Virus record (IMG/VR): IMGVR_UViG_3300010371_000035 | DNA length: 64,000 bases | DNA from: an uncultured virus (IMG/VR IMGVR_UViG_3300010371_000035) | Lineage: Duplodnaviria; Heunggongvirae; Uroviricota; Caudoviricetes | Reading direction: 5' to 3' (one strand) | Shown here: positions 26,497-58,450 of the stretch, in pieces | Layout of the letters: each line of letters starts with the position of its first letter | How positions within the stretch are numbered: position 1 is the stretch's first letter | Made by a program: the position numbers and the translations under genes | The notes under the pieces: model-generated | What the model saw: only the letters and a program-made list of their open reading frames with translations | Database searches by the model: none | What the model was told of the DNA's origin: nothing

Positions 26497-27087
26497 TTAC
26501 GAACCTTCTCCGGATCGATCGCGCTCGCTTTTGGTCTTCGGCCATATACCCGCTTCCCTGTAGACGTCTCGATCTTCGGCAAACTCACCTCTAACGTTCT
26601 CTTCCTCCTTCGCATCGTATCCGAAGGGATGCTCTTGTTCGGTAGTGGGCTTGCGGCCTCCTTTGTCGTAGTCTCGCTTGACTCTCTGAGAAGGTTGCTC
26701 TTCGAGGACGTATCGGACATGATGCAATGCCTCTTCAATATCGGCCAATGTGCGCCACCGGAACAGTAGCTCAATGGCCTTGGCTGTATGTTCGTCTTTG
26801 ACTTTGTTGGCCGAACAGAACAATCCGATGCTTTCCACAGTCGGCACCATGGAAGCCCGATTCTTCCGTCTCCCCGCTTCTGTAAGTTCGATCAGCTTGG
26901 CGACGATATGCTGGGACTTCTCGAGGTCTTGAACCGGCATCCCTTTCTTATCCCATCGCACCAGATACTTGGTCGCATATCCTTCCAAATAGCCGATACC
27001 GTGGTCCTCGATAAAATCCCAGTGCTGGTACCGCCCAGCCTGCGAGTAGTGGTCCCCGCCAACCTGATAGTCATTCGCCTTAGTCAT
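26497..27087 (-). CDS. DUF3310 (SaV/T7 gp1.7-like) protein, putative nucleotide kinase
   Basis: QVGGDHY...YLEGYATKYLVRW.KKG...DLEK motif. Confidence 0.8.
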   Translation of the reverse strand: MTKANDYQVGGDHYSQAGRYQHWDFIEDHGIGYLEGYATKYLVRWDKKGMPVQDLEKSQHIVAKLIELTEAGRRKNRASMVPTVESIGLFCSANKVKDEHTAKAIELLFRWRTLADIEEALHHVRYVLEEQPSQRVKRDYDKGGRKPTTEQEHPFGYDAKEEENVRGEFAEDRDVYREAGIWPKTKSERDRSGEGS

Positions 27088-27613
27088 AAGTATCCTCCTG
27101 CATCAAGACTTGGAACACTTCGCGAACTTCTGAAGGCAACGTGATCTCGCGCATCTTCATCGTTGCTTTGTGGTAGGATTTTCTCACAAGCTGATTACCA
27201 GCCAACAGATTCTGACGAAGGAATATCCATGCGTCAAACAAATCTGCCGCTTTGAGCCAGCGCATGTCTTGTTCGTCTAGATCGTTCTCATTCCAGAGCT
27301 CGTGCGTGCTTAGGATTCCTCCTTCGGCAGCGTCAATGATTTCTCGAACACCTGGATAGTCTTTGAACCATCGAGGGATATCGCCTGTCACATATTCAGG
27401 CACATCGTGAACCATCGCCGCCAAGATCAATTGCTTGCCTGGATTTGGATGTAACAGCAGGATGATCATCACGACGTTCCAAGTGTGAGCCGCGATTGTC
27501 TCCTCACGGATCACATGTGTTCGAGCATGCCAACGACGGACCTGACCAGCATTGTAGCAAAACATAAGCCGATCTACAAGAAATCGGACTCTTGTTTCTT
27601 CTCTTGATGCCAT
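27080..27613 (-). CDS. HD-domain 5'-deoxynucleotidase/dNTP pyrophosphatase (YfbR-like)
   Basis: VRRWH...ETIAAHTW...HDVPEYVTGDIP...KAADLFD; start uncertain. Confidence 0.85.
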   Translation of the reverse strand: MASREETRVRFLVDRLMFCYNAGQVRRWHARTHVIREETIAAHTWNVVMIILLLHPNPGKQLILAAMVHDVPEYVTGDIPRWFKDYPGVREIIDAAEGGILSTHELWNENDLDEQDMRWLKAADLFDAWIFLRQNLLAGNQLVRKSYHKATMKMREITLPSEVREVFQVLMQEDTYD

Positions 27614-27739
27614 CTCCATACCCTCACTGCTATTGCTTTCGTCACCGATTCTGCATTGGCTGAGATCTGAATTATTCGATCCCAGCTTGGGCTCTGAAGA
27701 CTGTCCGTCTCGTAGATTACCCGACATAGCTCGTCTAAC

Positions 27740-28756
27740 TCACGTTTGGTTGGCTTTCGCATTCCTTGCCTCGATCCGATTATCGAACCATTGAAGGGCT
27801 GCCTCTTGCCAGTCAGGTGCAGCAATCTGCATCGCCCAGCTCCCGGCCTTCTCTGGATCTTTCTCATGCACGAACGCATGCCATGCACGATACATCGGTA
27901 CGGCAATTCTGGCAAAGAACGGTGTATGCCAATCGTCTACTTCTGGTCCTCCCATTGTATATTGATCTATGAAGAACTTGGCGTCTCGCTGCCATTGGCT
28001 GATCATATCCGCTTTCGGCAACACCATGATATGTGACGGGTCGATGCCAATCTCATTGTAAGGATCTGGCGGCATCGGCTGTACCTTGCCGATCAATTTC
28101 TTGGTGACGTCAAACTCGGTATAGATATGAAAGTTGCTGCTGATCTGCGCATAGTATCCGATCTCACATCCAATGGCTGTTGCAATATACTCCTGCAAAA
28201 AACTGAAATGCACGACATTGGCTCCGTAAGCGCCATAGAGCATATCGTTGCTTCGGTTGAATACTGTCATGTCCAACTGACCGTCTCGGACATAGAACGA
28301 GATGCCGGTATTGCACGGGATATCCTTGCCGTCTCGGAAGCAATCGTTCATCCAAAAGATCGGGATGTAAGCCCTCCGAGTGCTCTTATCGTTTTGCAGT
28401 CGGTTGATTATCGACGTCAGCACCTTACTCCAACGATAGCCATAGCTCGAGACGAGCGTGACACCATCGTCCGAATACTCCTGCATACGTTTGTTGAACT
28501 TGACCAACCACGCTACTTCATTTCGCCCGGCCAGCATCCAAATGGACTCGAAGAAATGGAAGAAAGGATTGCAGTCACGCACCTTGTCGAAGAGCACACG
28601 CTTCCTTGGCTCGAGAAAGATCGTTGTGACCGGAAAGATCGAGCGACGCACCGGGCCATTGCGCGAAGGCTCCTCGATGACCGGAGCATTCTTATCCCAC
28701 ATCATGTGCCACATGACAGGGAAGGCTTCGTTGATGTTGTTGAAGATATATTCCAT
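27740..28756 (-). CDS. Thymidylate-synthase homologue, probable dUMP hydroxymethyltransferase
   Basis: RNGPV, NPFFHFFESIWMLAGRN, YGYRW, KDIPCN (catalytic Cys), NRSND, and GANVVHFS with the dUMP-specifying Asn. Confidence 0.85.
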   Translation of the reverse strand: MEYIFNNINEAFPVMWHMMWDKNAPVIEEPSRNGPVRRSIFPVTTIFLEPRKRVLFDKVRDCNPFFHFFESIWMLAGRNEVAWLVKFNKRMQEYSDDGVTLVSSYGYRWSKVLTSIINRLQNDKSTRRAYIPIFWMNDCFRDGKDIPCNTGISFYVRDGQLDMTVFNRSNDMLYGAYGANVVHFSFLQEYIATAIGCEIGYYAQISSNFHIYTEFDVTKKLIGKVQPMPPDPYNEIGIDPSHIMVLPKADMISQWQRDAKFFIDQYTMGGPEVDDWHTPFFARIAVPMYRAWHAFVHEKDPEKAGSWAMQIAAPDWQEAALQWFDNRIEARNAKANQT

Positions 28757-28770
28757 GTCCGGTTCTCCTT

Positions 28771-29457
28771 CTAGATATACTGCCGTACGCCATCTTCTAA
28801 CTCAGCTAATTGATTCAAATCGTTCCAGCCCTTGTACTCTATCGCTCGACGGGCCTGCAGCTTGGGCATGCGAGCCAATGCCTCAGACAAATAGACATCT
28901 TCTGCATGTATAGACTGACACAAGTTAAACATATTGAGTAGATAGACGCCAGCCACGGCATCTTCTGAGATTGGTCGTTTCTCGGCTATCTCTAGAATAC
29001 GACCGACACCGTCCTTGCGAACGTAGGACCATCGTTCGTCATTCTTTTGCTTCGGTCGAAACGTGAACACGACACCTGGACATTTGTCGTAGTCCAAGCT
29101 CTGGATACCTTCGATGATGCTTTTGCGATCGATCACATTGTCACAGTTGCTGATCAGCACAAAGTTTCTAAGACGTGTTGTCCGTAGCCAACGATAGACC
29201 GTCTGCGCTTGGCCAGATGTCGGCTCGATGAAATGCACCACTGTTTCTCGTCCAAGCGGCGGACAGCCCATTTCACGTCGTACAGCAATCTCGACATCCA
29301 TCTCATCCGGAACCATATTGATTACTTCATTGATTGCCAACCAGTTCCGATCCTTCTCTTCGACATGGATAAACGGTTTTACTCCACGAGCCTTTACCCT
29401 CTCGCCCAGACCTGCAGCCGGGACGAACATCACGAAATCTTCCATGGTAAATCTCAT
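28771..29457 (-). CDS. Sugar/alcohol-phosphate nucleotidyltransferase
   Basis: PAAGLGER...KPFI, NCDN, WSYV....G.ILEIAEK.PIS..AVAGVY motifs. Confidence 0.85.
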   Translation of the reverse strand: MRFTMEDFVMFVPAAGLGERVKARGVKPFIHVEEKDRNWLAINEVINMVPDEMDVEIAVRREMGCPPLGRETVVHFIEPTSGQAQTVYRWLRTTRLRNFVLISNCDNVIDRKSIIEGIQSLDYDKCPGVVFTFRPKQKNDERWSYVRKDGVGRILEIAEKRPISEDAVAGVYLLNMFNLCQSIHAEDVYLSEALARMPKLQARRAIEYKGWNDLNQLAELEDGVRQYI

Positions 29458-30212
29458 AGCAATTCATCCTTCTTCTCGTAGAGCCAGGAACAGTAGTCGA
29501 TGTTGTCGTCGCAAATTTCCTTCTGCCAATCTTCCTTTGCCCGCACTTTGATCCGCATGAAGTGTACGGCACACCAGAATGGAGCCATGTGGCATTCTTT
29601 CATTATCGCTCGGACATGGGCAGCGTGGAATTTGGTGCGTTGCTGTGGACTGTTCTTATCCCATCCAATAAGGCTCTGCAGCAACTTACCGTAATCTACA
29701 TCCTTATGTGGCGGAATATAGTCATGCCGCTTTGCCTGCCAGTCTATGAATTTGTAGATCTTGGTGCGCTCGATCACGGTGTTCTCGTGCGTTAGATCTC
29801 CGTGAGTAAGACAAGCTGGAATATTCTCATAATACAATTGAAGGAACGGCAGAGATGGAAGGGTAATTTCATTCAACCATCCCTGAGACTCGATATACTC
29901 AAATGTCTTTCGCGCACTGTAGATCGGCGCGTTCTTATGGATCCACTTTTCGGGAATAAACCAATAGTTCTTCATCGAGGCTTCGGCTATCCGCCAATGC
30001 CATTCACGATAGATCGGAGGGCCCAAAGATTGTTTGATCGTTTCCATGACATAGCTTGACTTGCCCAGCCAGTAAATCCTAGGAACGTTCAGAGGCTGAT
30101 AGTCTCCGATCTCCAGCATCACCCGGCCTTGTTCGGCGACCAGTGGCGAGCCGCTCTTTACCGTAAAGAATGGCGTCACCAATATATTCTCTCCTGACAG
30201 GTTTCGCTTCAT
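29454..30212 (-). CDS. APH/choline-kinase-like phosphotransferase
   Basis: HGDLTHEN (Brenner motif), FIDW, D.DYGKLLQS. Confidence 0.85.
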   Translation of the reverse strand: MKRNLSGENILVTPFFTVKSGSPLVAEQGRVMLEIGDYQPLNVPRIYWLGKSSYVMETIKQSLGPPIYREWHWRIAEASMKNYWFIPEKWIHKNAPIYSARKTFEYIESQGWLNEITLPSLPFLQLYYENIPACLTHGDLTHENTVIERTKIYKFIDWQAKRHDYIPPHKDVDYGKLLQSLIGWDKNSPQQRTKFHAAHVRAIMKECHMAPFWCAVHFMRIKVRAKEDWQKEICDDNIDYCSWLYEKKDELL

Positions 30213-31075
30213 TCTCCTCTCCCTTGCTTTATCGCCTTCTTCCATGCCACCACGATCCGCTTTGGACCCAATCGTTCGGCATCCTCGGTACGTACGATAA
30301 CACGTACAATTCCTGGATGCAATTTTCCCATTAAGTCAGCACCGTCTGATATGATCTTCGAATTACGGCCGCTGGCAGTCTCTCCACCACTAGCATTGAA
30401 TCCTCGAGGATCGTTAGTCGCTCCCCACATATAGATTGCATTCTCAAATCCGGCCTCCAGCAACTGGAGCGTATAGTCTAAGTCCTCGAACATCCGCACG
30501 CGCCCCAGCTTGCATACTTCCATGACCGTAGGGACATGGTATGCTAGAGCATGTGTTGCTTTGTGATTGAGAATGAACTCGTGGCCGTGGACTTGATTCA
30601 TATATCGCTGGCTGATCCCGCCATGACGATAGTCGTCAAGCATCTCTTCTACACGGCGGAACATAGCACTAGTGGACTTATGGTTCGCATCGTGGATCCG
30701 GCCGTAACTCCGATCTTTCTTTACCATCTCAGGCCACGCTTTTGGATCGCCTTGCTGATACCCAGCGTAGCTCTTATGAACATGCAGACGGGTACTGAAT
30801 CGAAGATCGTCGTCAAGCACGAGTATCTTCTCATACCTCATCTCAGAAGCGTGGCGGAATATCCACGCTCGCTTGGCGGCGATGTTGGCGCAATCCCTTG
30901 GAGCGGGACAAGCTACTTCAAACGCATTTGGGAACATACGATGCAGAGCATGCATCTCGTCTCTTGGGCAGACAAGAGTCGTGCGTTCCTGCCATTCCAT
31001 TGGCAAGCCCGCCATCGTGATCTGATAATCGAGGCGCTTATGCGTCGGGACGTAGATCATCATTTCGCCGGTCAT
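30209..31075 (-). CDS. GT-A fold DNA glycosyltransferase (GREB1/TAGT-like) 1
   Basis: IYVPTHKR, IAAKRAWI, LVLDDD, EDLDYTLQLL, GG motifs. Confidence 0.8.
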   Translation of the reverse strand: MTGEMMIYVPTHKRLDYQITMAGLPMEWQERTTLVCPRDEMHALHRMFPNAFEVACPAPRDCANIAAKRAWIFRHASEMRYEKILVLDDDLRFSTRLHVHKSYAGYQQGDPKAWPEMVKKDRSYGRIHDANHKSTSAMFRRVEEMLDDYRHGGISQRYMNQVHGHEFILNHKATHALAYHVPTVMEVCKLGRVRMFEDLDYTLQLLEAGFENAIYMWGATNDPRGFNASGGETASGRNSKIISDGADLMGKLHPGIVRVIVRTEDAERLGPKRIVVAWKKAIKQGRGE

Positions 31076-31191
31076 GGGTCACCCATATCCTGTACATTGT
31101 CATAGCTGCTATCGCCAACACTAGATAGGTTATCATGGCCGCGGCCGCAGCCACGATCCCTAGGACAAACCCTGTCCAGAACGGATCCATG

Positions 31192-32061
31192 TCAGCCTAC
31201 CAGTCCTGTCTTACCAAGCTGGATGGCGTTCTGCCAACGTATGACTACCTCGGCACGCGGCGTACTGACGAGATAGTCTTTCTGTTTTACCTTTACCAGC
31301 CCCGGATGCAGCCGGGCCAGCTTATAGGCATCGGCATTGCTCGCCTTCATACTCCGTTCGAGACTGGCTCCTCCTTCGGCATTGTATCCTTCGTATTGCT
31401 CGACCACGACCCAGCAGTAGATAGCGTTCTCGAACCCTTTCTTCATAAGCTGGAGCGTGTAATCGAAATCCTCACGATGTTCGATCCGGCCCAGCTTGCA
31501 ATGCTTGATCACAGTTGGCACGTGATAAGCGTTGGCATACATAGACCGGCGGTTTAGCATGAACTCACCCCACATCTCTTGGTTCATGAGACGTGGGCCA
31601 AATCCTCCATGCCGATAGGTGTTTAGCATAGACTCGATGCGGCGAAACGCCAGATCGATCTTCGGGTCCTCGGGGTCTGAGCATTTGTAGAGCCCAGATG
31701 CTTCTGGATGTTTTTCACGATACGCTCGCCAATCCTTCGCCGTGCCTTTCTGAAAACCGGCAAACTGTTTGACGTACTCGTGGCGCGGGCAGAACGACAA
31801 GTCGTCGTCCAACATCATGATCTTTTCCTGTTTCAGACCCGCTGCGGTCTTAAAGATGAACGCTCGCTTCTGGGCAATCGACATCTTAGGATCAGGCTGC
31901 ATGATGCAAGCGCACGACGGCCAGTTCTTCAAATGCGCGTGCATCTCATCTTTCGGGCAAACGATCGTTGTCCGTTTGCGCCATGCCTCCGGCATGTTCT
32001 GCAAGGTCAGTTGGATATCGACCCTACCGCGCGTAGGGATATAGAGTCGCATGCCGCTCAT
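31192..32061 (-). CDS. GT-A fold DNA glycosyltransferase (GREB1/TAGT-like) 2
   Basis: LYIPTRGR, IAQKRAFI, MMLDDD, EDFDYTLQLM, GGAS..R motifs; paralog of the neighbouring gene. Confidence 0.8.
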   Translation of the reverse strand: MSGMRLYIPTRGRVDIQLTLQNMPEAWRKRTTIVCPKDEMHAHLKNWPSCACIMQPDPKMSIAQKRAFIFKTAAGLKQEKIMMLDDDLSFCPRHEYVKQFAGFQKGTAKDWRAYREKHPEASGLYKCSDPEDPKIDLAFRRIESMLNTYRHGGFGPRLMNQEMWGEFMLNRRSMYANAYHVPTVIKHCKLGRIEHREDFDYTLQLMKKGFENAIYCWVVVEQYEGYNAEGGASLERSMKASNADAYKLARLHPGLVKVKQKDYLVSTPRAEVVIRWQNAIQLGKTGLVG

Positions 32062-32384
32062 TGTTGGTTCATCCGGTTGTCGATTTCCATTCGACGATTG
32101 ATCTCACGCAGTCGCTCTTGTCCACTGTTAGTGATCTTAAAGATACGGCATGGCGTCGGCATGTTATCCTTCCCGGGCGGGAGCATGGGATTCGGCAGTA
32201 CCGGCTGCAGGTCCCAGAAACGGATCCAGCCCATCTCCATGCACTTCTGCCATGCAAGATTCATCTCTGGTTCTTGGAATACAGCGCCGACACCCATGAC
32301 CAGTTTCTTCTCAGCCTCAACTAGGATGTTACGCTCGAAGTTCGGCTTAGAGCCGATGCCCGGAACGACGATATGTGGCTTCAT
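32058..32384 (-). CDS. Hypothetical protein
   Basis: Coupled (ATGA overlaps) inside the modification operon. Confidence 0.55.
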   Translation of the reverse strand: MKPHIVVPGIGSKPNFERNILVEAEKKLVMGVGAVFQEPEMNLAWQKCMEMGWIRFWDLQPVLPNPMLPPGKDNMPTPCRIFKITNSGQERLREINRRMEIDNRMNQQ

Positions 32385-33229
32385 AGGAACTTCTCCTCAT
32401 AGGGAACGTATTGCGTCTTGCTGTAGCCTCTCACATACTTGCTGAATTCACACAACATGTTCTGCACATCATGCAGTGTCGCCCGCTTGCCGAGCGCAGG
32501 TAGCTTGTCGTCAATCAAGTCTGCAAGTTCTCGCATCCAGACGACACCTTGCTGTTGATTCATCTTCTTGGCATCGGCATCACCACGATAGATGATATTG
32601 AGCCCTTTGATGCTGCCCGGTCCAAGCGGAGCCCATGTCTTGGCATCCTTGGCTTTGATGATGCCGAACGTATTCCAATCGGCAACGATCTGTCCTGCCA
32701 TGAACGAACCCTGACCGGGATGCTTTCGCAACTCCTTCCAAGTTTCCTCGAAGGATTCACAGAGCATGACGCCATTGCGGAACATAGGATCCAAAACACT
32801 ATCTACGACCGCCACATATTTCTTTTGACCGGGGCCTGCCACCACGCCGGTTATGATATACGCAGCCCTGAATATTTTCAGCTTCTTCGTTTCCATGTGC
32901 CGCAGGATGTTCTTGTATCGCATCGGGGACCAGACAGTTGGCAGTTGCGCTAGCGTGTCTGGTTCGTTGATCCAGCGAGCCACGGCAAATGAGAACCATC
33001 GATCCTTGGGTGCCCACTCCTGTGCCCAATCCCCAATCCACTTAGTGACCCGGTCGTCGGCACGGATCATGTTGCAGAAGTGATATTGTTGCAAGACTCC
33101 GTCCGAAGTCCACGGTGCCTTTTCACCAGCCTCTTTCTTGCGCCGGATATTCTCACGTTCGTTGATGAATTTCAGAAAGCTCAGCTTCCTGTCTTTCTCA
33201 GTCTTAAGATCATTAACGAGCAGACTCAT
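32381..33229 (-). CDS. 5-hmdU DNA kinase, helical domain (aGPT-Pplase1 family)
   Basis: FINERENIR..K..G...PWT.D.VLQQYHFCN..R.DDRVT.WI; FMAGQIVAD; GPGS..GL; DVQNMLCEFSKY. Confidence 0.85.
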   Translation of the reverse strand: MSLLVNDLKTEKDRKLSFLKFINERENIRRKKEAGEKAPWTSDGVLQQYHFCNMIRADDRVTKWIGDWAQEWAPKDRWFSFAVARWINEPDTLAQLPTVWSPMRYKNILRHMETKKLKIFRAAYIITGVVAGPGQKKYVAVVDSVLDPMFRNGVMLCESFEETWKELRKHPGQGSFMAGQIVADWNTFGIIKAKDAKTWAPLGPGSIKGLNIIYRGDADAKKMNQQQGVVWMRELADLIDDKLPALGKRATLHDVQNMLCEFSKYVRGYSKTQYVPYEEKFL

Positions 33230-33299
33230 ATTCCTTCTCCTCCTAATGTGCGTCCGGAGCGGTTTCCCGCCCCGGCCGACTTTGCTAAAGAGGTGAAGT

Positions 33300-33665
33300 T
33301 TATCGGACCTGGACGACGCCATCCTTCACGAGGAACGACAGGATGCCCGAAGCCTTGAACGGAATCTTGGCCTTGTCGAGCGCCTTGTTGAACTCGCCGA
33401 AGGTCATGTTCGGCTTGATGAGCGAGAGCGTCCGACCGACATTGCTGTCCGGGCGAGTGTTCCGCTGACCGACCACCTTGAGACGCTGATGATCCTCGAA
33501 AGTCTGGCGGGAAGCTCGTTGCGTCGGAGCTGCGGTCGCCTTGGCTCCCTTCTGCCCCTTGGCCACTTCCATCTGTTTCTTCGCACGCGGCTTGGTGACA
33601 CCGAGCAGATCGCTCTCGACGTTCCGAGAAGCCTTGCCGTTGGTCGCTTCCTTTGCCTTAGCCAT
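33300..33665 (-). CDS. Basic putative DNA-binding protein (paralog 2 of 3)
   Basis: AAGGAG RBS; C-terminal ILSFLVKDGVVQVR. Confidence 0.7.
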   Translation of the reverse strand: MAKAKEATNGKASRNVESDLLGVTKPRAKKQMEVAKGQKGAKATAAPTQRASRQTFEDHQRLKVVGQRNTRPDSNVGRTLSLIKPNMTFGEFNKALDKAKIPFKASGILSFLVKDGVVQVR

Positions 33666-39875: not shown

Positions 39876-39928
39876 AAAATAAAAGAGGGGGCTCGCGGGG
39901 AATTGCCAATCCCATATGCGAGCCCCCT
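39876..39928 (-). terminator. Rho-independent terminator closing the ncRNA
   Basis: AGGGGGCTCGC / GCGAGCCCCCT 11-bp stem followed by CTTTTATTTT on the minus strand. Confidence 0.8.
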
Positions 39929-40185
39929 ACTGCCAAGTCTAGTTCATGGCTACTAACGATTAGAACAACCAGATGAGTACTCTAACCACTGAGTTACCCC
40001 GGTACAGTGGTAGAAGATGGAACCGGGGGCAGGATTCGAACCTGCGACTCTCATTGGGTTTTCACCAGACCTTTCTTAGCAGATGGTTTAGGCAGACCGT
40101 TGAGGGCAATACACAGAATCGAAGTACGACCCTAATGTCCCATATGACTATGGGAGCCTGACCATAACCATGTCCCTCACAGGAC
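39929..40185 (-). ncRNA. Structured ncRNA containing a circularly permuted tRNA-like domain (39973-40054)
   Basis: Minus strand reads ATGAG-AGTC-GCAGG TTCGAAT CCTGC-CCCCGGT-T-CCA, then a 14-nt linker, then ACCGGGG-TA-ACTC AGTGGTTA GAGT-A-CTCAT. All four stems pair perfectly. RNA ends are inferred. Confidence 0.8.
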
Positions 40186-40956
40186 CTATGTAGTCCGCGA
40201 CATCCGGCCGTGGACAATGAAGTTGAGAAGCGGCGTCGCTATCCGCTCCTCGCTGATCTCTACGTCATTCGCTCGCTGACGTGCGCGTTTCGCTGCCTGT
40301 ATCACCGTATCGATCCTCCCGAGCATGTCCGATTTTTGGGCTGGGCTTATCGCAGCAGTATAGTGCGTTGTCGTCACCTTCGCAACCCGTACGTCGTCGT
40401 GACTCTCTTTGACCTGAGCAGGATGCTGTGGCGTCGGTTGGACCACTACGGTATAGACAGGGAGTTTCCTTGTAATGTATGAGATCTGATCGCGGCTCGA
40501 TTTGTGGATGTAGCCTTCCGAAGATTGCGCAGAGTCTCTTTCCCAGACAATCCCAGGCGCTTGTGTCGGAACCATCTCGACCATCGCCCGATATTCCTTG
40601 AACTTGTTCTCGAGAGTCAGCAAGAAACCGACCGGGACAGCTTCGGCCACGACGACTCCATCAATCTCCAGATCGGCTTTCGCTGTCTGGTTGGCGCACT
40701 CGATCTGGTAGTCGAGATCCAGCAATGCCCGGATATGGCCGTTCACATAATCCAACTTGCCGGGCACCGTCTCATCGACCTTCTTTTCCTCGATGCCGTT
40801 GAATTTCTGTTGCTCCTCGTCATAGAACTCAGTGATCTTGACGAACCCAGCGAAATGGGACGCACCTTTGAATGTGGCACGCGCCTCGTCTAAGATCTTC
40901 TTGGCGACCCCAGAACGATCCTTGTGGATCGACAGTCCTTCATGTAGCTTGGCCAT
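40186..40956 (-). CDS. Protein of unknown function directly upstream of the ncRNA
   Basis: AAGGAG RBS, 256 aa; motifs AN..AKADL.IDG...VPV.FLL.LE and T.QHPAQV. Confidence 0.8.
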   Translation of the reverse strand: MAKLHEGLSIHKDRSGVAKKILDEARATFKGASHFAGFVKITEFYDEEQQKFNGIEEKKVDETVPGKLDYVNGHIRALLDLDYQIECANQTAKADLEIDGVVVAEAVPVGFLLTLENKFKEYRAMVEMVPTQAPGIVWERDSAQSSEGYIHKSSRDQISYITRKLPVYTVVVQPTPQHPAQVKESHDDVRVAKVTTTHYTAAISPAQKSDMLGRIDTVIQAAKRARQRANDVEISEERIATPLLNFIVHGRMSRTT

Positions 40957-41111
40957 CTACTTCTCCTTTGGAACCATTTTCCTAAACGCTCGTATCCAAT
41001 CCAAGGCAAACGTGTTTCCGCGTCTTGCCAGCAGGATAATCTCAATCGCCTTGGCTGACGTGTGCCCGCCACGGCAGAGCAAGCGATAGACTCTGCCGTA
41101 GTGTTTCTGCT

Positions 41112-43137
41112 TTACCATTTCATCCCATGTTTCTTGAAGATAGCTGCGGCGAGATTGATCAGATGCTCAACTTGCGGACGATAGGTATGGCTCTCGATGC
41201 TGACCCACCTGTCTCCCTTATCCTTGGCATGCACCTGATAGTGCCTCTCCATCTCTTCGCGAGTCTTGTAGGAACAGCAGCCGTAGGCGACGAAGGAGCC
41301 AATTTCTCCGTCATGGTCTCCCATGCCATTATCTTGATAACCCTTATCGTCTGGATCGGTGCAAATCCTGACGAGGAACTCGTGCTCCTCACCGTGACCA
41401 AATCGGTCCTTATGTTCATGTGCAGGAGTACGAACTCCTTCATAGCGGTATATCCATTCCTGCTGAGGAGTGGGTTCCTCTTTATGAGAATATTGGATTT
41501 GCCGTTCCAAATAAGAAAGATCATTCGGTTGCCGCTTGGATGTCCGCTTGGTCACTTTCTTGCTTGCTGTTCTATTCTTGCGCGACGCAACTTTTCTACG
41601 AGCCATTGTTCTCTCCTCCTTCTAGAGCTTGTCGAGCATATGACGGCATATGGCCAGATCGATTGGATCTCGGCTGTTCAAGCACGTAACTCTATGCCAC
41701 GCCTGCTTCTCGGGCAGGCTCAGCTGATCATAGACCTCGTTTACTCGGATCATCGCCGGGTGATCCTGTGGCAATATCTGCATCGTCTTCTGATCGACGA
41801 TCACCGGCCGACATCCCGGACAGCCCTCCTGATACTCGTCCCTGCTCATTATCTACTCCTTCGTGGAACATATGACAGTTGCTGCAATACTTCTCGCGGA
41901 CATCATTGGGATTGTGCGAAGTCATATTGCACTTTGGACACGTGATAGATGGTGGAGGATCCACCTTCTTTGGTTTCCATGGATAGTAGTTTGCTCTCCA
42001 CACCATGCGCGCCACCAGTTCATTCTTTTCTTCGTCTGTGAGATGCTTGCTACGCCGGACGGCGGCAATCGCATGGGTTAGGATCATGATTTCCTCGGCT
42101 TGTTGGTCAGGAAGTCCATGACGCGAGTTTCCTCAGAGATAAGAGGCTGCACCATTGCCTGCAGCTTCTCCTCCGTCTCACCCCAGAAGATCATAATGTC
42201 GAATGGACGATCCCATTCGGCACCAAGGATATGGATCGGATGACCTTCTCGCATTCTCTGGATGTTGCCCTCGCTAAGTCCGAAGGCATACATATCCTGA
42301 CCTCTACGGCCTTGAGCATAGAGCTTAATCATGCCACAGGGTCCTTCACGATCTTGATGATAACGTAGGTGTGGTCCACGTCTCCATTAAAGACCTTGGC
42401 CTGCTCTTCGTCCAAGGCGGTGGCCAGATTATCGTCGATATCCAGCTCTACCATGAACCGGGCGTCACGAACCGTAATGTCCACGACTGGATAATCCTCA
42501 AAGTTTGGTTTCTCAGCCATTTACTTCTCCTCTCTTCCTGAGTTCGCCCACCAATGCTTCAGCGGCAGCGATCTGTGTGGCGAAGTTTCCCTTCTCGCAT
42601 TCCAGCGCAGGCAGCTTGCTGTGGCGCGACCGACGGATGCGCCATAGATCGCCACCCGCCTTCACGACTTGGTATTGATCATATTCTCGAGGCCGCGCGC
42701 CAGACATCAGCACACGAGAACTCGTCGGTCGTTTCATTTCGGCTCCTCCTTGATCTGTTTCGTTGCTCCCAGGAGCTCACGGAGCTGATCGCGCACTACT
42801 GGATCCTCGACCGTGCGCAAGAAATCACATTCCGCACACAGATTGTCTGTTGTACCCGGTCGCCGTTCGAGGAACGTGTAGACATGCGTCCCGCAGTCCT
42901 CACATTCAAACTCCCTCGGGCCGCTCATTTGGGCCACCGTTTCGCCCGCTCGGCGTTCCACGGCAAGTCCGGTATCTCGTCACCGAAATACGATTTCAAC
43001 AATTCGGTCAGGATACGGCGTTCCTCGACCGTCACACGCATTTTCGATATCTCATGACCCAGCCGAATCATATTGAGGTGGAACAACTTGTGGTCCCTTG
43101 GCCTCAACTCGATCCGCAACAACCCATCGTCCGACAT
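41112..43137 (-). other. Cluster of small hypothetical genes (41112-41606, 41622-41849, 42084-42332, 42329-42520, 42513-42737, 42734-42961, 42925-43137)
   Basis: Tightly coupled ORFs with RBSs; several carry CxxC pairs. Confidence 0.65.
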
Positions 43138-43423
43138 AACCTGTCCTCCTATAATAACCGCAGGCTCGAAAGGACGGTAGAGGAAAACCCGGCCTTCGAT
43201 TTCCTCCCACCCTGGACTCGTCTTAGAGCGACCACCGACGTCCCAAACTAGGAGTTAGCATCCAGTGCCATTGCCGCACGACACGACCACCGGAGAACCC
43301 GCGATACAAACCCAGCATAGCAAAACGCCCCGGTTCATGCAGCATGAACTGCACAGACCGGGGCGCCTGTTAGAGCAGACCGAGGAGGGGCGTCGGAACA
43401 GTCTGCTCTGTTATCCGATCGAA

Positions 43424-43789
43424 CTACGCCTTCACGCCGAGGAGCTTGGCCAGCGGCTTGAGCTTGGCGTCCTTCACGTCATCGTCGAACTTGGCGATCT
43501 TGACCTTCTTGAACGCGTCACGGATCTTGGCAACGTCATTCGGCTTCTTGGACATCGCCCTGATCTTCTCGACGATCTTGTCGCGAAGCTCCTGCATCGG
43601 GTCGGCTTCTTCACCTTCCTCACCCAGGAGGTCAGACCCGTCGCCCTCTTCCTCGGACGTCTCTTCTTCGGTCGTTTCCTCTTCGGGCTCGGTCTCCTCA
43701 GGAGCGGCACCGCGCGCTTCCAGCCACGTCTTGACCTGCTCGACGACTTCAGCTTCGTCGTCGCCTGTGAACATCACAGAAATACCCAT
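43424..43789 (-). CDS. Acidic protein typical of the head of DUF2800-DUF2815-PolA modules
   Basis: Glu-rich linker plus basic helical C-terminus; high-expression codon bias. Confidence 0.65.
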   Translation of the reverse strand: MGISVMFTGDDEAEVVEQVKTWLEARGAAPEETEPEEETTEEETSEEEGDGSDLLGEEGEEADPMQELRDKIVEKIRAMSKKPNDVAKIRDAFKKVKIAKFDDDVKDAKLKPLAKLLGVKA

Positions 43790-44318
43790 GGTCTTTCCTT
43801 TCACTCTGCAGAGAGGCATCTTTGCCTCGCCGACCATGGTGGCGATGGATGTTCTTCCGCGCAAGCTGAATTTGGCACCTTATATTCGCCCGCGCGAGCG
43901 CGCGATGCGCTCCTGTTGCTCTTTTATGAGCTGTTTCATCCGTTCTCTTCTCAATCTCGTCCGTTCCATTGTACGAATATGCGACACCATGGCCCGGAGC
44001 ACCATCATCCCATCCACCCTGTCAATTTCTTCTGCTATATGAAAGGCACTGGCAGCGCAGGGGATGCAGATCTTAAAATCTATTGTATTCAAATAATCTC
44101 GAGCTCTTTTTGGAAGATTGTCGAACTCTTGCATAACTTCTACTGGATCTACATACGACTGTATCATACATCCATAGATATTGGTCTGCTGGAGCAACGA
44201 GGCTGGAAAATCCGAGAGTTTCATATTTACTATCCTCCACCGCTTACCGCCGGTACCAACCGCAGTATGCCTGTATCTACTGGTCATATGCAATTAGAAC
44301 TTTACATTGCCAGGAAAA

Positions 44319-44347
44319 TTGCTGCCGGAAATATCGGCTGCTACAAT
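44319..44347 (+). promoter_or_regulatory. Sigma70-like promoter for primase-helicase
   Basis: TTGCTG-17 nt-TACAAT upstream of a GAGGAG RBS. Confidence 0.5.
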
Positions 44348-44380
44348 AAGGGTAAGAGGGCCGGAACGAAAGAGGAGAGA

Positions 44381-46570
44381 ATGACAGACTATCTTAAGAA
44401 ATACGGATTGACCGTTGTAAAGAACGGATGGCCGATTGTTCTACTTCCACATGGGAGCAAGAAACCAATTGGATTCAAATGGCAGGAGAAGGTTGTTACA
44501 GAGCACGACATCAAGCGAGCGCTCGCCTCCGGTAAGGAGTACGGGTTTGGGATCAAGTGCGGCAATGTGGTTGGGATAGACGACGATTACGAGGAGTCGG
44601 ACACTGTCACCGAAACGTTCCTCGATGCGGTCAAGGAGCTCAAGGACCATTACTTCCCGAAGTCGCTCTGGCGGCGTGGCCGTCCGACGCGACAACCACT
44701 CCGCGTTATTCGTCTCAAGGACGGGGAGGCCGCCAAGTCTCTCAATGTAGACAAGCTGCAGATCATCGGCAAGGGTCGTCAGTTCGTTGCCTATAACCTC
44801 CACCCCGATACAGGAGAATCGTATGTCTGGCTCAAAGGCGAAGACGAAGGCATCGGAAGCCCAGTCTCAATGCGATTCAAGGACATCCCCCAATACAGCA
44901 GAGCAGAGCTCGAGGGATTCTTGCAAGGGGTGCTCCTCCTCGAAGAAACCTTCGGACTGGCACCCGAACGAACAGGAGATGTTGTCCGCGCTATCAAGGC
45001 TGGTGAGCGTCCGAAGCGTGTCGCCGGGCTTTCTGCAGACCGAAAGCTGGTTGAGAAAGCATGCGAGTACATTGTGAACGATCCGAAGTGGGGATGGGAA
45101 GACTGGAATAACAACATCATGATGCCCCTCTACAACGCCAGCAAAGGCGAACCGTGGGGTTTGGAGCTTGCACATGCGCTATCGGCCCAGAGCGATCTCT
45201 ACGACGAAGCGACGACGGAAGAAAGATGGGAACAAATCGAGAAGCATCCAGCCGATCTACTCGGTTGGCCACGGCTCAATTGGCTGGCTCGACAACAGGG
45301 TATGCCTTTCCTCGGTCCGCTGGATTGGGACAACTACCGAGTCTTCATGGACCGCAAAGAAGTCCTTAATGTCACGAATAATCAGTGGATTATTTCTGAG
45401 AGGTTTAACGATCTGTTTGCAGATTATAAAGAGAAGAAACGCACGGTGATGCAAACGTTCGTAAAGAACCGTCCCGATCAAGTGTTCGACACGATTACGT
45501 GGGACAGCAGCCTGCCCAGCGGGATGGCCTCGAAGTCCGGACGTCGTCTTTGGAATACATGGGTGGCCCCGGACTGGTGGGGCGAACCGGGCGATATAAC
45601 GCCATGGCTTATCGTCATGGATAAGATCTTCGGAAATCTAATGCATCTGGTGATCAAACGGATGGCGTGTGACGTCCAGTATCCCGAAGTGCGGCCGCAA
45701 TGGCACATCCTTGTCACGGGAGAGAACGGCATCGGCAAATCGACAACATTCTATCCGCTTATGGAATGGGCCAAGCGATTCAACATGCACGCGCCTATCA
45801 CAACGAATATGATCAATGGCCCGTTCAATGCATGGATATCTCGTAAGAAGATCATAACGTTGAACGAAGTGGTTGGCATCACGTCAGCGCAATTCGACAA
45901 TCTGAAGGACATGCTGGCGGGCGGTGAGAGCGAAATAATGGTCAACGACAAGAACGTCAAGTTGGTGCCTGAACATCTTATTGCTTCGTTCTACTGTTCC
46001 AGTAACCATCGCAATGCGTTGTCGATCACAAAGACCGAGCGCAGGCTCTTGGTCCATCATAGTCAAGAGCCATCGCCCGAGAAGGGTAGCAAGGCATCGA
46101 AGGAAGCATATGATGCATTCCAATGGGTTAAACAGAACTGGCCTCGAGTGGTTCATCATCTGAAGCATGAAGTCAAAGTGTCCTCGGCGTTCGTGCAAGT
46201 TCATCCCGGTGTGACGGCTGGACAACGAGAAATGGCGGACATGACCGCCCCAGCGCACGAGCGTATCGCCGACAACATCCGCGAGATCATGCACAACGTC
46301 CCTGTCTTCGATATGCGGGACGTCGCCACCGCGTTGGCCATGGACGAGAGCAGCGTGGACGGCAGCATGATCAACAATGGCATGATCCGCAAAGCGCTAA
46401 GCCATCTAGGTGCTGTCCGTCTCAACAACGGCCGGTCTGTGAAGATCATCAACGGACATGGCGCAGAACAGAAACGGTTATGGTCCCTCGACCGCGAACT
46501 GGAAACGGCACCGAATGAACAAGTGCGATTCCTATACGAGACGTTCCGTAAAGATGAGAAGTACAGCTAG
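44381..46570 (+). CDS. Primase-helicase (Prim-Pol N-terminus, PriCT-2, SF3/DUF5906 helicase)
   Basis: GWPIVLL...KKP..W, GIDDD, GRQFVAY..HPDTG..Y.W; GENGIGKS Walker A; SSNH; GAGGAG RBS before ATG 44381. Confidence 0.9.
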   Translation: MTDYLKKYGLTVVKNGWPIVLLPHGSKKPIGFKWQEKVVTEHDIKRALASGKEYGFGIKCGNVVGIDDDYEESDTVTETFLDAVKELKDHYFPKSLWRRGRPTRQPLRVIRLKDGEAAKSLNVDKLQIIGKGRQFVAYNLHPDTGESYVWLKGEDEGIGSPVSMRFKDIPQYSRAELEGFLQGVLLLEETFGLAPERTGDVVRAIKAGERPKRVAGLSADRKLVEKACEYIVNDPKWGWEDWNNNIMMPLYNASKGEPWGLELAHALSAQSDLYDEATTEERWEQIEKHPADLLGWPRLNWLARQQGMPFLGPLDWDNYRVFMDRKEVLNVTNNQWIISERFNDLFADYKEKKRTVMQTFVKNRPDQVFDTITWDSSLPSGMASKSGRRLWNTWVAPDWWGEPGDITPWLIVMDKIFGNLMHLVIKRMACDVQYPEVRPQWHILVTGENGIGKSTTFYPLMEWAKRFNMHAPITTNMINGPFNAWISRKKIITLNEVVGITSAQFDNLKDMLAGGESEIMVNDKNVKLVPEHLIASFYCSSNHRNALSITKTERRLLVHHSQEPSPEKGSKASKEAYDAFQWVKQNWPRVVHHLKHEVKVSSAFVQVHPGVTAGQREMADMTAPAHERIADNIREIMHNVPVFDMRDVATALAMDESSVDGSMINNGMIRKALSHLGAVRLNNGRSVKIINGHGAEQKRLWSLDRELETAPNEQVRFLYETFRKDEKYS

Positions 46571-46846: not shown

Positions 46847-47419
46847 ATGTCATCCGATATCATGATCGATCTTGAGACGCTGGGCCTCCAGCCGGGTTGC
46901 GTCCTGCTGTCGTTGGGTGCAGCCGCTTTCAGTTTGAATGAACCCGGCAGTCTAGGGGACACCTTCCATTGCAACATCAACCGAACCTCGTGCGTCAAGC
47001 TGGGTATGTTCATCGACCCTTCCACGGAAATGTGGTGGACAACGCAGAGTGAGGAGGCGAAGGCAGGACTCTGGAACCCTCAGCCGGTGGACATCAGCAT
47101 TGCCTTCTACCACTTCTTCGAGTGGATCAAAAAGCATGGGGATGTTCGCGTGTGGTCGCATGGGGCTGGCTTCGATCTGCCTATGATCCATGATGCTGCC
47201 CGGCGCTGTGGATATTCTATGCCATGGTCGTTCCGCAATGAACGCGATACACGGACTCTGTTCCATCTGGCACGAAATCTGATTCCGTGGGGGCAATACG
47301 TCGAGATAATGGAACAAAAAGCTGGTGTTCACCATCATGCGAGGGACGATTCTGTCACACAGGCCGAACAGGTCATGAAACTCTGGGCAGCCGTGGAAGG
47401 GTCAAAAAATGGGGGGTGA
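46847..47419 (+). CDS. DEDDh 3'-5' exonuclease (Rv2179c/DUF5051-like)
   Basis: MIDLETLG, WSHGAGFD, RDTRT, HHARDD. Confidence 0.9.
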   Translation: MSSDIMIDLETLGLQPGCVLLSLGAAAFSLNEPGSLGDTFHCNINRTSCVKLGMFIDPSTEMWWTTQSEEAKAGLWNPQPVDISIAFYHFFEWIKKHGDVRVWSHGAGFDLPMIHDAARRCGYSMPWSFRNERDTRTLFHLARNLIPWGQYVEIMEQKAGVHHHARDDSVTQAEQVMKLWAAVEGSKNGG

Positions 47420-57063: not shown

Positions 57064-57669
57064 ATGATCGACCGCAAGTTCTTCTATAACTCGGTGCGCG
57101 TGTTCCTATTCAATGGGACATTGAGCCAGCAGCAGGTCAATGGCATGAACACTATCCTGGATACGTTCGAGGATCTGAAGATCTATGATCTAAGATGGTG
57201 CGCCTATCCCTTGGCGACCACGTTCCATGAGACCGACCGTGAGATGTGGCCGATCAACGAGTATGGCGGAGACGCCTACTACACCAGACTCTACGACGTC
57301 ACGGGTCTATATCCGGCCCGAGCCCGTTCGATGGGGAACGTGAATCCAGGCGATGGTATCAAGTATCACGGCCGGGGCTACGTTCAGCTCACATGGGCGA
57401 ACAACTACAGAGCGCTCGGCACGGCGTTGAAGTTGGATCTGCTGAACAAACCAGAGCTGGCGCTCGAACCCGTCAATGCTGCCCGTATCCTGTTCAGAGG
57501 CATGATTGATGGCACGTTCACAACGCGCAAGCTGGCCGACTACTTCACAGCCAGCCTAGACGAACCGGAAGCAGCGCGCCAGATCATCAACGGCGACGAT
57601 CATGCAGAAGACATTGCTGTATATCACGACAACTTCTTGAACGCCTTGGAAGGAAATGCCAATGCCTAG
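57064..57669 (+). CDS. Endolysin, glycoside hydrolase family 19
   Basis: LATTFHET, GN...GDG.KYHGRGYVQLTW..NY, ARQIING. Confidence 0.9.
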   Translation: MIDRKFFYNSVRVFLFNGTLSQQQVNGMNTILDTFEDLKIYDLRWCAYPLATTFHETDREMWPINEYGGDAYYTRLYDVTGLYPARARSMGNVNPGDGIKYHGRGYVQLTWANNYRALGTALKLDLLNKPELALEPVNAARILFRGMIDGTFTTRKLADYFTASLDEPEAARQIINGDDHAEDIAVYHDNFLNALEGNANA

Positions 57670-58450
57670 GAGCAAACAATGGTACGGATGCATTCCGGAC
57701 TACAAGGACCATCGCGATCATGTCATGCAGGTTGCCGCGCCGCAGACTCTACCGCCCAGCGTTGACTTGAGCCGGTGGTGTCCGCCGGTCATGAATCAGG
57801 AATCGTTGGGTTCCTGTACGGCGCATGGCGTCAGTGGCTGCGCGCGCTGGCACATCCTCAAGCGCAACACCACTTATGATTTCGAGATGTCACGTCTTCA
57901 GCTCTACTACGACAGCCGGATGAGCGAGGGTACGGTGGACGTAGACAGCGGTGCCATGATCCGCGACGTTATCAAGTCTGTGGCGGCCAAGGGGATCGGT
58001 CACGAGGAACTCTGGCCGTACGACATCACCAAATTCACTCAACCGCCGCCGCAGGAAGTCTACGACGACGCCGTTCAATACAAGGCGTTGCACTTCAGTC
58101 GCGTGCCGGTCAGCGTCAACGGCCTGAAGACGGCACTGGCAAATCAGCATCCAGTGGTCATCGGCATCTCGGTCTACGACAGTTTCGAGTCCGATGAAGT
58201 CGCACGTACCGGGATGGTGCCGATGCCGGGTCCGAATGAGAGCATGATCGGCGGCCACTGCATGTACGTGATCGGCTATGGTCAGAAGCCCGATCATTTC
58301 ACCGTCCGTAATTCCTGGGGCGATGACTGGGGTGACAAGGGGAACTGCTACATCCCGTTCAATTTCCTCGGGTCGCCGACCTACGGATCCGACTATTGGA
58401 TCATCGACCTGTTCGGATCCGACGCCGAGCAGCAGGCTCATACGGCTTAA
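57656..58450 (+). CDS. Papain-family (C1) cysteine peptidase
   Basis: Q..LGSCTAH, GGHC...IGY, RNSWG..WG.KG. Confidence 0.9.
   Translation: MPMPRSKQWYGCIPDYKDHRDHVMQVAAPQTLPPSVDLSRWCPPVMNQESLGSCTAHGVSGCARWHILKRNTTYDFEMSRLQLYYDSRMSEGTVDVDSGAMIRDVIKSVAAKGIGHEELWPYDITKFTQPPPQEVYDDAVQYKALHFSRVPVSVNGLKTALANQHPVVIGISVYDSFESDEVARTGMVPMPGPNESMIGGHCMYVIGYGQKPDHFTVRNSWGDDWGDKGNCYIPFNFLGSPTYGSDYWIIDLFGSDAEQQAHTA

Follow-up and report, generated by a model that had tools for sequence, protein, structure and literature searches.

A gene for a DUF7873 protein is linked in phages to a predicted YrlA-like RNA with a circularly permuted cloverleaf

The gene pairs rsr-yrlA and smpB-ssrA are known examples of a protein and a non-coding RNA that are encoded side by side and form a ribonucleoprotein (RNP). 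In the two-piece forms of transfer-messenger RNA (tmRNA) an intervening piece is removed and the gene of the dedicated protein is often adjacent, and the red alga Cyanidioschyzon merolae has permuted nuclear tRNA genes whose 3′ half precedes the 5′ half and which give true tRNAs via a circular intermediate. To our knowledge, Y RNAs with tRNA-like domains have so far been known solely as partners of Ro60. Here, we describe a candidate RNP of a different composition in a 64,000-nucleotide stretch of DNA from an uncultured tailed phage (IMG/VR record IMGVR_UViG_3300010371_000035; hereafter the window, meaning this stretch at its full length). It consists of a gene for a 256-aa protein of the Pfam family DUF7873 and of a non-coding stretch of about 300 nt that follows its stop codon on the minus strand, carries a circularly permuted tRNA cloverleaf and is closed by a terminator hairpin. 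The linkage between DUF7873 genes and this type of RNA is close to certain.

In nine annotated phages that span the DUF7873 family, an unannotated gap of about 100-480 nt lies directly 3′ of the DUF7873 gene, and all nine gaps contain, on the strand of the gene, either a match to the YrlA model or a match to the T-arm/acceptor segment of a permuted tmRNA model. A model-free scan required a perfect T stem, a T-loop pattern and a 7-nt 3′ acceptor strand, followed after a linker of 3-150 nt by a 5′ acceptor strand of full complementarity and a GG-containing D arm. Applied to 89 loci (the nine annotated phage loci and 80 IMG/VR loci; 501,141 nt), it returned 90 matches on the strand of the gene and none on the opposite strand, distributed over 78 loci. 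Eighty-six of these matches lie at most 1 kb downstream of the stop codon, from which the T arm is 184 nt away in the median, and a single one of the 86 overlaps a tRNA called by ARAGORN; the four matches located elsewhere include one pair of adjacent tRNA-Lys genes. Ten extra loci from metagenomes or metagenome-assembled genomes (MAGs) yielded a unit in eight cases. A covariance model of the core, R1, was built from 53 scan-derived sequences, so that the seed loci match it by construction. At E≤1e-9, R1 gives 100 matches, all on the strand of the gene, in 93 of the 99 loci, nearly all of them 0.1-1 kb downstream, and it recovers six loci (L028, L039, L047, L050, L072 and L078) that had failed the strict rule of the scan. 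Only four of the 100 matches do not lie just downstream of the gene, i.e., two tandem tRNAs (L019), one upstream match (L081) and one match at +1.6 kb (L080). In the reverse direction, all eight R1 matches of at least 45 bits in five phage genomes (878 kb) are linked to DUF7873, and the strong matches in five further records are either linked to DUF7873 or located next to a gene for a TROVE (Ro60-type) protein. Several phages carry two or three tandem units, and no third gene recurs among 150 neighbouring open reading frames (ORFs) of 38 loci. The initial annotation, made from the window alone, had proposed that gene and RNA form a two-part system, and its conservation on one strand in 93 of 99 loci with no third conserved gene bears this out.

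Tandem canonical tRNAs can imitate a permuted unit, an artefact of which Chen et al. already warned (PMC4201824). The R1 matches at 115-116 kb and at 140 kb of the 358-kb phage record G002 were rejected as such, these regions being arrays of nine and four tRNA genes; further R1 matches of 38-45 bits are present in the same record at 95.6-96.0, 123, 135-136 and 145 kb.

The permuted core displays the constraints of a tRNA. For 68 units, RNAalifold recovered the three stems (T, acceptor and D), each of their 16 pairs showing compensatory changes; the initial annotation had suggested looking for a covarying permuted cloverleaf downstream of the homologues. The family statistics below are based on 73 non-redundant units. 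Since the scan itself demanded pairing, the stronger evidence for the fold comes from features that it did not impose. The anticodon-type stem is paired at 5 of 5 positions in 38 units (52%) against 8.9% with swapped partners, and the Levitt pair 15:48 covaries (G15:C48 in 46 units, A15:U48 in 22, A15:C48 in three, G15:U48 in none, other combinations in two; Fisher p 1.8e-15). A14 and U8 are found in 73/73 units and G53:C61 in 72/73. By contrast, the discriminator varies (U 30, G 21, A 17, C 5), as do the acceptor sequences, freely, and G3:U70 occurs in only two units, the window having C3:G70, so that the family keeps no particular amino-acid identity and lacks the alanine identity of tmRNA.

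In the window, each cloverleaf element of the initial annotation was recovered base for base (Table 1), with an anticodon-type stem of 5 bp and no anticodon loop. The four stems can be forced at no cost, the constrained and the unconstrained fold of 255 nt both having -83.8 kcal/mol. The z-score of the 251-nt fold is only -2.26, and the case for more than chance is made by conservation in other phages and not by this single-sequence fold. The hairpin previously reported at 40155-40138 is also present, and the terminator described after the module can be seen by eye as a hairpin with a T-run; the promoter/terminator scan called no terminator there because the 21-nt loop exceeds the 3-8 nt rule of the tool. 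A proposed pairing of the outer flanks (40172-40165 with 39952-39945) fared less well. The complementarity exists (8 bp with one G-U) and the helix is possible, but it is 3.1 kcal/mol worse than the best fold and finds no support in L092, a 68%-identical relative, whereas the family statistics favour a closing stem between the proximal flanks. The fold of the 5′ domain is largely kept in L092, the only close relative that a metagenome scan returned. In the closing stem of the window one can draw a sarcin-ricin/loop-E motif (AGUA opposite GAA); it was discarded as a family feature, being found in only 4/73 units.

Standard detectors pass over this RNA. ARAGORN reports neither a tRNA nor a tmRNA in the 64 kb, and Rfam gives no match at gathering score. 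With a permissive threshold, the YrlA model RF02553 aligns end to end (model positions 1-114 of 114) with 39950-40068 of the minus strand, with a score of 36.3 bits (gathering score 69; E 3.1e-6 for 701 nt searched), and the Rfam tRNA model aligns with the T arm only (14.6 bits). The RNA does not form the contiguous cloverleaf with a 7-nt anticodon loop that characterises a canonical tRNA. The model-free scan of both strands of the window returned exactly one site, which is this RNA, and R1 likewise gives a single match. In the initial annotation, a full-length match to a described family whose known partner is encoded elsewhere in the genome had been named as grounds for abandoning the proposed system; the match to YrlA is indeed full length, but it is sub-threshold and the known partner of YrlA is absent from the window. 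Architecture, closing stem and model alignment all agree with the YrlA-type permutation recognised at the outset.

The sequences around the core are also structured. The flanks of a unit (70 nt on each side) pair at -28.8 kcal/mol with each other and at -19.9 kcal/mol when swapped between units (73 own vs 584 swapped pairs; Mann-Whitney p 6.7e-20), the effect being both proximal and distal. Because own flanks pair so much better than swapped ones, the module sits on a closing stem, as in Y RNAs. A subfamily of seven members has a multi-domain consensus of the whole intergenic RNA (~280 nt) with covarying stems. A hairpin directly follows the stop codon; next, a long-range helix joins the 5′ part to the 3′ tail, and then come a variable hairpin with covariation, one that exposes UGCCC in its loop and, leading into the tRNA-like module, a covarying stem. 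UGCCC is located 60-69 nt ahead of the T arm in about 20 of the 73 units and occurs in 22 of 66 5′ domains (7 and 6 in two controls), and a CCC-N4-GGG hairpin occurs in 15 of 66 (2 in the control). The window carries UGCCC and a hairpin of the CCC-N4-GGG type; both are subfamily-level elements and not universal ones. By eye, we also noticed a hairpin after the stop codon, its 5′ side followed by UUGAG/UGUGAG, within about 40 nt in the window and in L001, L002, L003, L005 and L008.

The acceptor stem has 7 bp, an encoded CCA follows the discriminator in 63/73 units, 38/73 have U(-1) and the linker measures 3-143 nt (median 20). A same-strand gene for a canonical tRNA starts 48-68 nt past the D arm in 26 of the 66 non-redundant loci, and the tail of the window RNA (~42 nt, with the terminator hairpin beginning ~49 nt past the D arm) matches this spacing. 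On the other side, a tRNA-Thr gene lies 6-8 nt after the stop codon and 123-128 nt before the T arm in L014, L016 and L032, and three tRNAs stand between gene and RNA in L071. As tRNA genes abut the RNA at such fixed distances, its ends would often be set by the processing of the flanking tRNAs, and the RNA would comprise a 5′ domain of ~125 nt, a core of 55-200 nt and a tail of ~50 nt. The Mycobacterium smegmatis YrlA, the sole studied YrlA with a 7-bp acceptor, is cut by RNase P and bears CCA in vivo; both halves were recovered with Rsr, the CA being added after transcription (PMC4201824). By analogy, we infer the same RNase P/CCA processing for the DUF7873-linked RNAs. The encoded CCA, the U(-1) and the 7-bp acceptor lend indirect support to the proposal of the initial annotation that cutting in the linker would expose a CCA end.

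Several observations concern the tRNA and tmRNA genes around the module. The putative canonical tRNA called just after the permuted unit often has an unusual anticodon, i.e., tta ('Stop'), ata, att or tat (L041 3653-3727, L020 3614-3686, L082 3534-3605, L056 3478-3550), and the anticodon is unreadable in L028 and L067. The 'tRNA-Sup-TTA' annotated in Klebsiella phage FBKp24 (L003 4013-4097; 46041-46120 of the record), which ARAGORN calls a tRNA-Stop, shares the T arm and CCA of the second permuted unit, with which it overlaps, and it is probably a mis-called permuted RNA and not a suppressor tRNA. One-piece tmRNA genes are found in the same tRNA regions as the module in Gordonia phage GodonK (L008 177-705, 90.3 bits) and in an IMG/VR contig (L043 5005-5395), where the encoded tag is GKQPSKAEPMKLAA.

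We looked for Ro60 in the window and in related phages. As the initial annotation had stated, the window encodes no Ro60-like protein: TROVE was not detected in any of 68 ORFs scanned, which cover 62 of the 81 ORFs of a greedy set of at least 90 aa plus six smaller ones. The 19 others are all of at most 272 aa, and the TROVE frames found in phages have 529 and 563 aa. The same 68 ORFs contain no TROVE gene within ~4 kb of the RNA on its strand, a position in which a YrlA RNA would have its partner. Among 11 phage records with the module, TROVE is present in two, the large phages RHph_Y65 and G002, and absent in nine (RHph_TM16, FBKp24, K479, RSL1, Talia1610, Ronaldo, GodonK, D472 and the partial record G001, which is the nearest to the window, 47.9 kb long and an estimated 61% complete). 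In RHph_Y65, three permuted units lie upstream of TROVE (L091 387-1229), one with a tetraloop-closed acceptor and no CCA and another with a 7-bp acceptor and UCCA; in G002, an array free of canonical tRNAs, with four strict units and one more R1 match, is located ~0.8-1.5 kb downstream of TROVE (L104, 329200-330300). These TROVE-linked units score 34-37 bits with the Rfam YrlA model, below its gathering score, and 47-67 bits with R1, and the DUF7873-linked units of nine relatives score 29-38 bits with the YrlA model. Since the TROVE-linked units also reach just 34-37 bits, the gathering score of 69 does not separate the two kinds in phages, and since R1 and the Rfam model score both alike, the tRNA-like module is common to the two systems. 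The motif GNCGAAN0-1G near the 5′ end, which Chen et al. (2014; PMC4201824) proposed as the Ro60 contact, is found in one of 73 5′ flanks, with 1.6 expected from shuffles; the window has GGUGAA at the aligned place, with one mismatch. Judged on these features, the RNA is a YrlA-like tRNA mimic that lacks the Ro60-related marks of the YrlA class.

The protein itself matches DUF7873 (PF25283) with 196.5 bits (E 7.9e-58; curated cut-off 27 bits), residues 1-248 covering profile positions 1-242 of 244. This is its only Pfam match, which excludes a TROVE domain (PF05731) as detectable by Pfam, and PHROG, NCBIfam and PADLOC returned no family for it. All of 101 word-indexed homologues are DUF7873 proteins and none is functionally named, although one source labels a homologue 'predicted nucleic acid-binding protein'. 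An exhaustive profile search retrieved 2,609 cluster representatives at E≤1e-3, and the 150 listed measure 245-275 aa with one matched stretch each. No longer or fused forms were found, which is weak evidence that none exist. DUF7873 occurs in 70 deposited phage records (Vibrio 29, Rhizobium 12, Gordonia 10, Klebsiella 7, Serratia-named 6, Arthrobacter 3, Ralstonia 2 and Rhodococcus 1), none of which reaches 40% identity with the protein of the window. Among 185,579 prokaryote species, each represented by one genome, there are just nine occurrences, all of them on contigs of MAGs, one of which measures 163 kb and the others 2-21 kb, so that the family can be regarded as essentially viral.

The AF2 model of the protein (pLDDT 92.5, pTM 0.67) consists of four long helices and long beta hairpins. 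A sequence search of the PDB gave a best E of 0.14, neither Foldseek against the PDB nor a search of BFVD found anything at E≤1e-3, and the ESM Atlas returned DUF7873 clusters only, followed by weak neighbours at TM 0.40-0.46. The best match of the VIA wide search was an uncharacterised protein (3kdq_A, Z 9.0, rmsd 7.4), the other rows being generic helical hairpins, and no Ro60 is listed by the fold searches, which is weak evidence against a Ro60 fold. Modelled in two copies, the protein scored 0.70 and the best of three controls 0.00; this mark was attained by 20 of 30 proteins solved as pairs of one chain and by one of 23 solved as single chains. The runs agreed in at least 97% of contacts with a partner pLDDT of at least 87, and the modelled interface is intertwined and symmetric, strand 38-43 lying against strand 192-199 of the other copy. 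The two-copy model suggests that DUF7873 is probably an intertwined homodimer.

Taken together, we propose, with a probability of about 60%, that the module is a phage RNP in which a DUF7873 dimer would sit on the non-tRNA part of a processed, two-piece, CCA-ended tRNA mimic. The protein would bind the 5′ domain and the closing stem, thus taking the place that Ro60 occupies on YrlA. RNase P would cut before the 5′ acceptor strand and exonucleases would trim the linker back to the encoded CCA, leaving an RNA in two pieces that the acceptor, anticodon-type and closing stems would hold together. The exposed tRNA-like elbow and CCA end could then engage host factors that handle tRNAs during infection, candidates being the CCA-adding enzyme, modification enzymes, a synthetase, EF-Tu or tRNA-directed defence nucleases. 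A more far-reaching version, which we put forward only tentatively, is that DUF7873 defines a second, Ro60-independent and phage-specific class of Y-RNA-type RNPs whose mimic might be charged or recognised as a tRNA and might blunt tRNA-directed defences or redirect translation or RNA turnover.

Several observations weigh against the proposed RNP. DUF7873 has no recognisable RNA-binding fold or any fold match, and the family as a whole has no basic character (median pI 6.96, net charge 0), although it keeps a cluster of conserved basic residues in the C-terminal helix (K208, R214, K223, R226 and R228). Ten of the 73 units encode no CCA, and that of one subfamily is predicted to be sequestered in a linker hairpin. 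Six of the 99 loci lack a strong RNA match (L029, L073, L074, L083, L097 and L100), the contig of L029 stopping ~100 nt past the gene and L073/L097 and L083 having weak matches only, and the unit lies 0.9-1.6 kb from the gene in L071 and L080. The longest contig with the protein measures 78,081 nt, so that ~14 kb of the phage, possibly with a TROVE gene, may lie outside the window. The available contigs from RNA libraries do not inform on the tRNA-like core, which their coverage misses. Lastly, the synteny on which the proposal draws would also fit an enzyme-substrate or a purely regulatory link.

An enzyme-substrate link would mean that DUF7873 is an enzyme or chaperone acting transiently on the tRNA-like RNA or on tRNAs (in repair, modification or protection), with the RNA as substrate, cofactor or decoy. 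We consider this unlikely: no catalytic fold or motif was recognised, the phage of the window keeps the module without any tRNA gene in 64 kb, and one gene with one RNA at a fixed spacing is the pattern of the known RNP pairs. It draws some support from the position of the module in or next to tRNA clusters (55 of the 89 loci have at least one tRNA within ~2.5 kb), from the absence of an overall basic charge and from the 'predicted nucleic acid-binding protein' label of one homologue. A regulatory link would make the RNA a cis-acting 3′ element of the DUF7873 mRNA, either an RNase P site or a protective end controlling the stability or translation of the message. Metatranscriptome contigs from four libraries of four studies cover only 40048-40426 of the window, and two of them, X19 (40070-40338) and X22 (40048-40234), extend past the stop codon into the 5′ domain. 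This hints only weakly at read-through transcription, as such libraries can contain DNA and the contigs show neither ends nor strand. The promoter scan likewise found no convincing promoter between gene and RNA in the window, its single promoter-like site (40385-40357) lying inside the coding sequence at chance level; the record of FBKp24 annotates a promoter in the interval between gene and RNA. In the loci where a tRNA-Thr or three tRNAs separate the gene from the RNA, processing would detach the RNA from the mRNA, and a mere processing site would leave the tRNA tertiary constraints, the one to three tandem units and the conserved 5′ domain unexplained. A cis-acting element is thus quite improbable in our opinion.

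The remaining alternatives assign the RNA to a described class. An ordinary YrlA, using the Ro60/Rsr of the host or one encoded outside the window and merely neighbouring DUF7873, would account for the end-to-end YrlA match, for the core and scores shared with the TROVE-linked units of RHph_Y65 and G002, and for the two phages that carry both genes. It is very improbable given that the linkage to DUF7873 is too tight for a chance neighbour, the Ro60 motif is at chance level, nine of the 11 module-bearing phage records lack TROVE and, in both phages with the two genes, TROVE has a separate unit array of its own. That the locus is a permuted gene for a real tRNA, with ends joined into a circle to create the anticodon loop and then opened at the acceptor stem, as in Cyanidioschyzon, is harder still to sustain: we know of no bacterial pathway that joins the ends of a permuted tRNA precursor, no conserved halves of an anticodon loop are visible by eye beside the anticodon-type stem, the long flanks (~125 and ~50 nt) pair as a helix, the acceptor and discriminator identities vary freely, and no joint appears in the RNA-library contigs, whose coverage misses the core. 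On the other side, the 3′-half-first order, the encoded CCA, the acceptor of the RNase P type and the anticodon-type stem of 5 bp are all as expected of such a gene. We give the least credence to a two-piece tmRNA-like RNA with DUF7873 as an analogue of SmpB. The permuted order and the CCA agree with it, and five relatives score 20-25 bits with the beta_tmRNA model over the T-arm/acceptor segment, but ARAGORN, which detects permuted tmRNAs, finds none in the window, the G3:U70 pair is as good as missing from the family, the D arm is complete and followed by a piece of only ~50 nt, and in two relatives the locus holds a normal tmRNA at another position.

The window is a tailed-phage segment whose DNA occurs in rhizosphere and soil metagenomes. 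Capsid and tail genes occupy 1-20 kb and lysis genes are found near 57-58 kb; a minus-strand block for replication and nucleotide metabolism (25-41 kb) encodes a helicase, a family A polymerase, a Gp2.5-like single-stranded DNA-binding protein and a DUF2800/PD-(D/E)XK exonuclease, and a primase-polymerase is encoded at 43.3-46.6 kb. The genes at 27080-33322 of the minus strand (Table 1) form a block typical of thymidine hypermodification, suggesting that the phage DNA probably carries modified thymidine. A 3′-5′ exoribonuclease resembling Rv2179c (46847-47419, plus strand, 136.7 bits) is encoded ~6 kb from the module; that it could trim RNA 3′ ends such as the linker after the CCA is pure conjecture. 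The lysis cassette contains an unusual pair, a glycoside-hydrolase-19-like gene (57064-57669, plus strand) followed by a gene for a papain-family cysteine peptidase (57656-58450). The GC skew flips at ~43000-44500, where the genes switch from the minus strand (up to ~43 kb) to the plus strand (from 43265), which may mark a replication origin or a divergent promoter region.

Table 1. Coordinates of the DUF7873 gene, the permuted RNA and neighbouring genes in the window (MFE, minimum free energy)
Feature	Position	Strand	Basis or remark
DUF7873 protein gene, 256 aa	40186-40956	-	Pfam PF25283
Ribosome-binding site AAGGAG	40963-40968	-	Sequence reading
5′ domain of the RNA	40083-40185	-	Predicted fold
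Hairpin opening the 5′ domain	40185-40172	-	Predicted fold
Closing helix of the branched domain	40171-40166/40088-40083	-	Predicted fold
Hairpin CCCAUA...UAUGGG in the branched domain	40154-40139	-	Predicted fold
Second hairpin in the branched domain	40138-40111	-	Predicted fold
UGCCC	40108-40104	-	Recurs in relatives
5′ strand of predicted closing stem	40057-40081, partner 39931-39970	-	Constrained and unconstrained MFE folds
3′ strand of anticodon-type stem, ATGAG	40054-40050	-	Sequence reading
Variable region AGTC, 4 nt, ending in C48	40049-40046	-	C48 pairs with G15 (Levitt pair)
T arm, 5-bp stem, loop UUCGAAU	40045-40029	-	Sequence reading and scan
3′ acceptor strand CCCCGGT	40028-40022	-	Sequence reading
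Discriminator U	40021	-	Followed by encoded CCA, 40020-40018
Linker, 14 nt, last base U(-1)	40017-40004	-	Predicted removal by RNase P and 3′ trimming
5′ acceptor strand ACCGGGG	40003-39997	-	Sequence reading
U8 A9 (UA)	39996-39995	-	Sequence reading
D arm, 4-bp stem, with A14, G15, G18 G19	39994-39979	-	Sequence reading
Position 26 (A)	39978	-	Sequence reading
5′ strand of anticodon-type stem, CTCAT	39977-39973	-	Sequence reading
3′ tail, ~42 nt, pairing back to 40057-40081	within 39931-39978	-	Predicted MFE fold
Terminator-like hairpin (stem 39928-39918/39896-39886) and T-run (39884-39876)	39876-39930	-	By eye; G+C-rich
HD/YfbR-like gene	27080-27727	-	Hypermodification block
Thymidylate-synthase-like gene	27740-28756	-	Hypermodification block
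TET-associated glycosyltransferase-like (TAGT) genes, two	30209-31075, 31192-32061	-	Hypermodification block
5-hmdU DNA kinase gene	32381-33322	-	Hypermodification block

The module provides a first context for DUF7873 and pairs the tRNA mimic known from YrlA with a different, uncharacterised protein family of thousands of members. It also identifies, in dozens of deposited phage genomes, an RNA gene that is unannotated and sometimes mis-annotated. Cultured phages with DUF7873 exist for Rhizobium, Gordonia, Arthrobacter, Vibrio, Klebsiella and other hosts, offering an independent and genetically tractable system for asking what purpose a tRNA-shaped module serves on a non-coding RNA. A full-text literature search that did not extend to the supplementary tables of Chen et al. 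or to a 2020 review on Y RNAs and Ro60 in bacteria, either of which might list YrlA-like RNAs not tied to Ro60, retrieved no description of a DUF7873-RNA module and no paper mentioning DUF7873; among the papers listed for permuted tRNAs and phages, none concerns phage RNAs as far as titles and the opening lines of abstracts indicate. A survey of jumbo phages mentions only TROVE with a tRNA-like partner (PMC7824862). The search of Chen et al. was limited to genomes annotated with a TROVE protein (PMC4201824), and would therefore have missed the DUF7873-linked RNAs.

Compared with the described systems, the RNA shares with the permuted tRNA genes of Cyanidioschyzon the encoding of the 3′ half of the cloverleaf first; those genes are eukaryotic and have anticodon loops, whereas here, in a phage, no loop can be assembled from conserved sequence. 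With two-piece tmRNA (RF01850) it has in common a T arm, a 3′ acceptor strand and a CCA located upstream of the 5′ acceptor strand, and it differs by the absence of the alanine identity pair, by its full D arm, by being negative with ARAGORN and by having no evident tag reading frame, although no systematic frame search was made; on the protein side, the comparison with SmpB meets the result that DUF7873 matches no solved structure in fold searches. The closest relatives are the YrlA RNAs that associate with Ro60/Rsr (RF02553). Both kinds present the same order of closing stem, variable region, T arm, acceptor stem, D arm and closing stem, the tertiary signatures of tRNA, including the covarying 15:48 pair also reported by Chen et al. 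(PMC4201824), a neighbouring protein gene on the same strand, a presence in phages and sometimes tandem units. They differ in the partner gene, which is DUF7873 here and not TROVE, in the GNCGAAN0-1G motif, absent here, and in size, the DUF7873-linked RNA having ~250-300 nt with an extra 5′ domain of ~125 nt against the 114 positions of the YrlA model. The combination of a 7-bp acceptor with an encoded CCA is the rule for DUF7873-linked RNAs. The YrlA of M. smegmatis comes nearest in this respect, since it has the same 7-bp acceptor and CCA signals; the CA is added there after transcription and the halves were recovered bound to Rsr (PMC4201824), whereas the DUF7873-linked RNAs, for which a corresponding cleavage is predicted, mostly encode the complete CCA.

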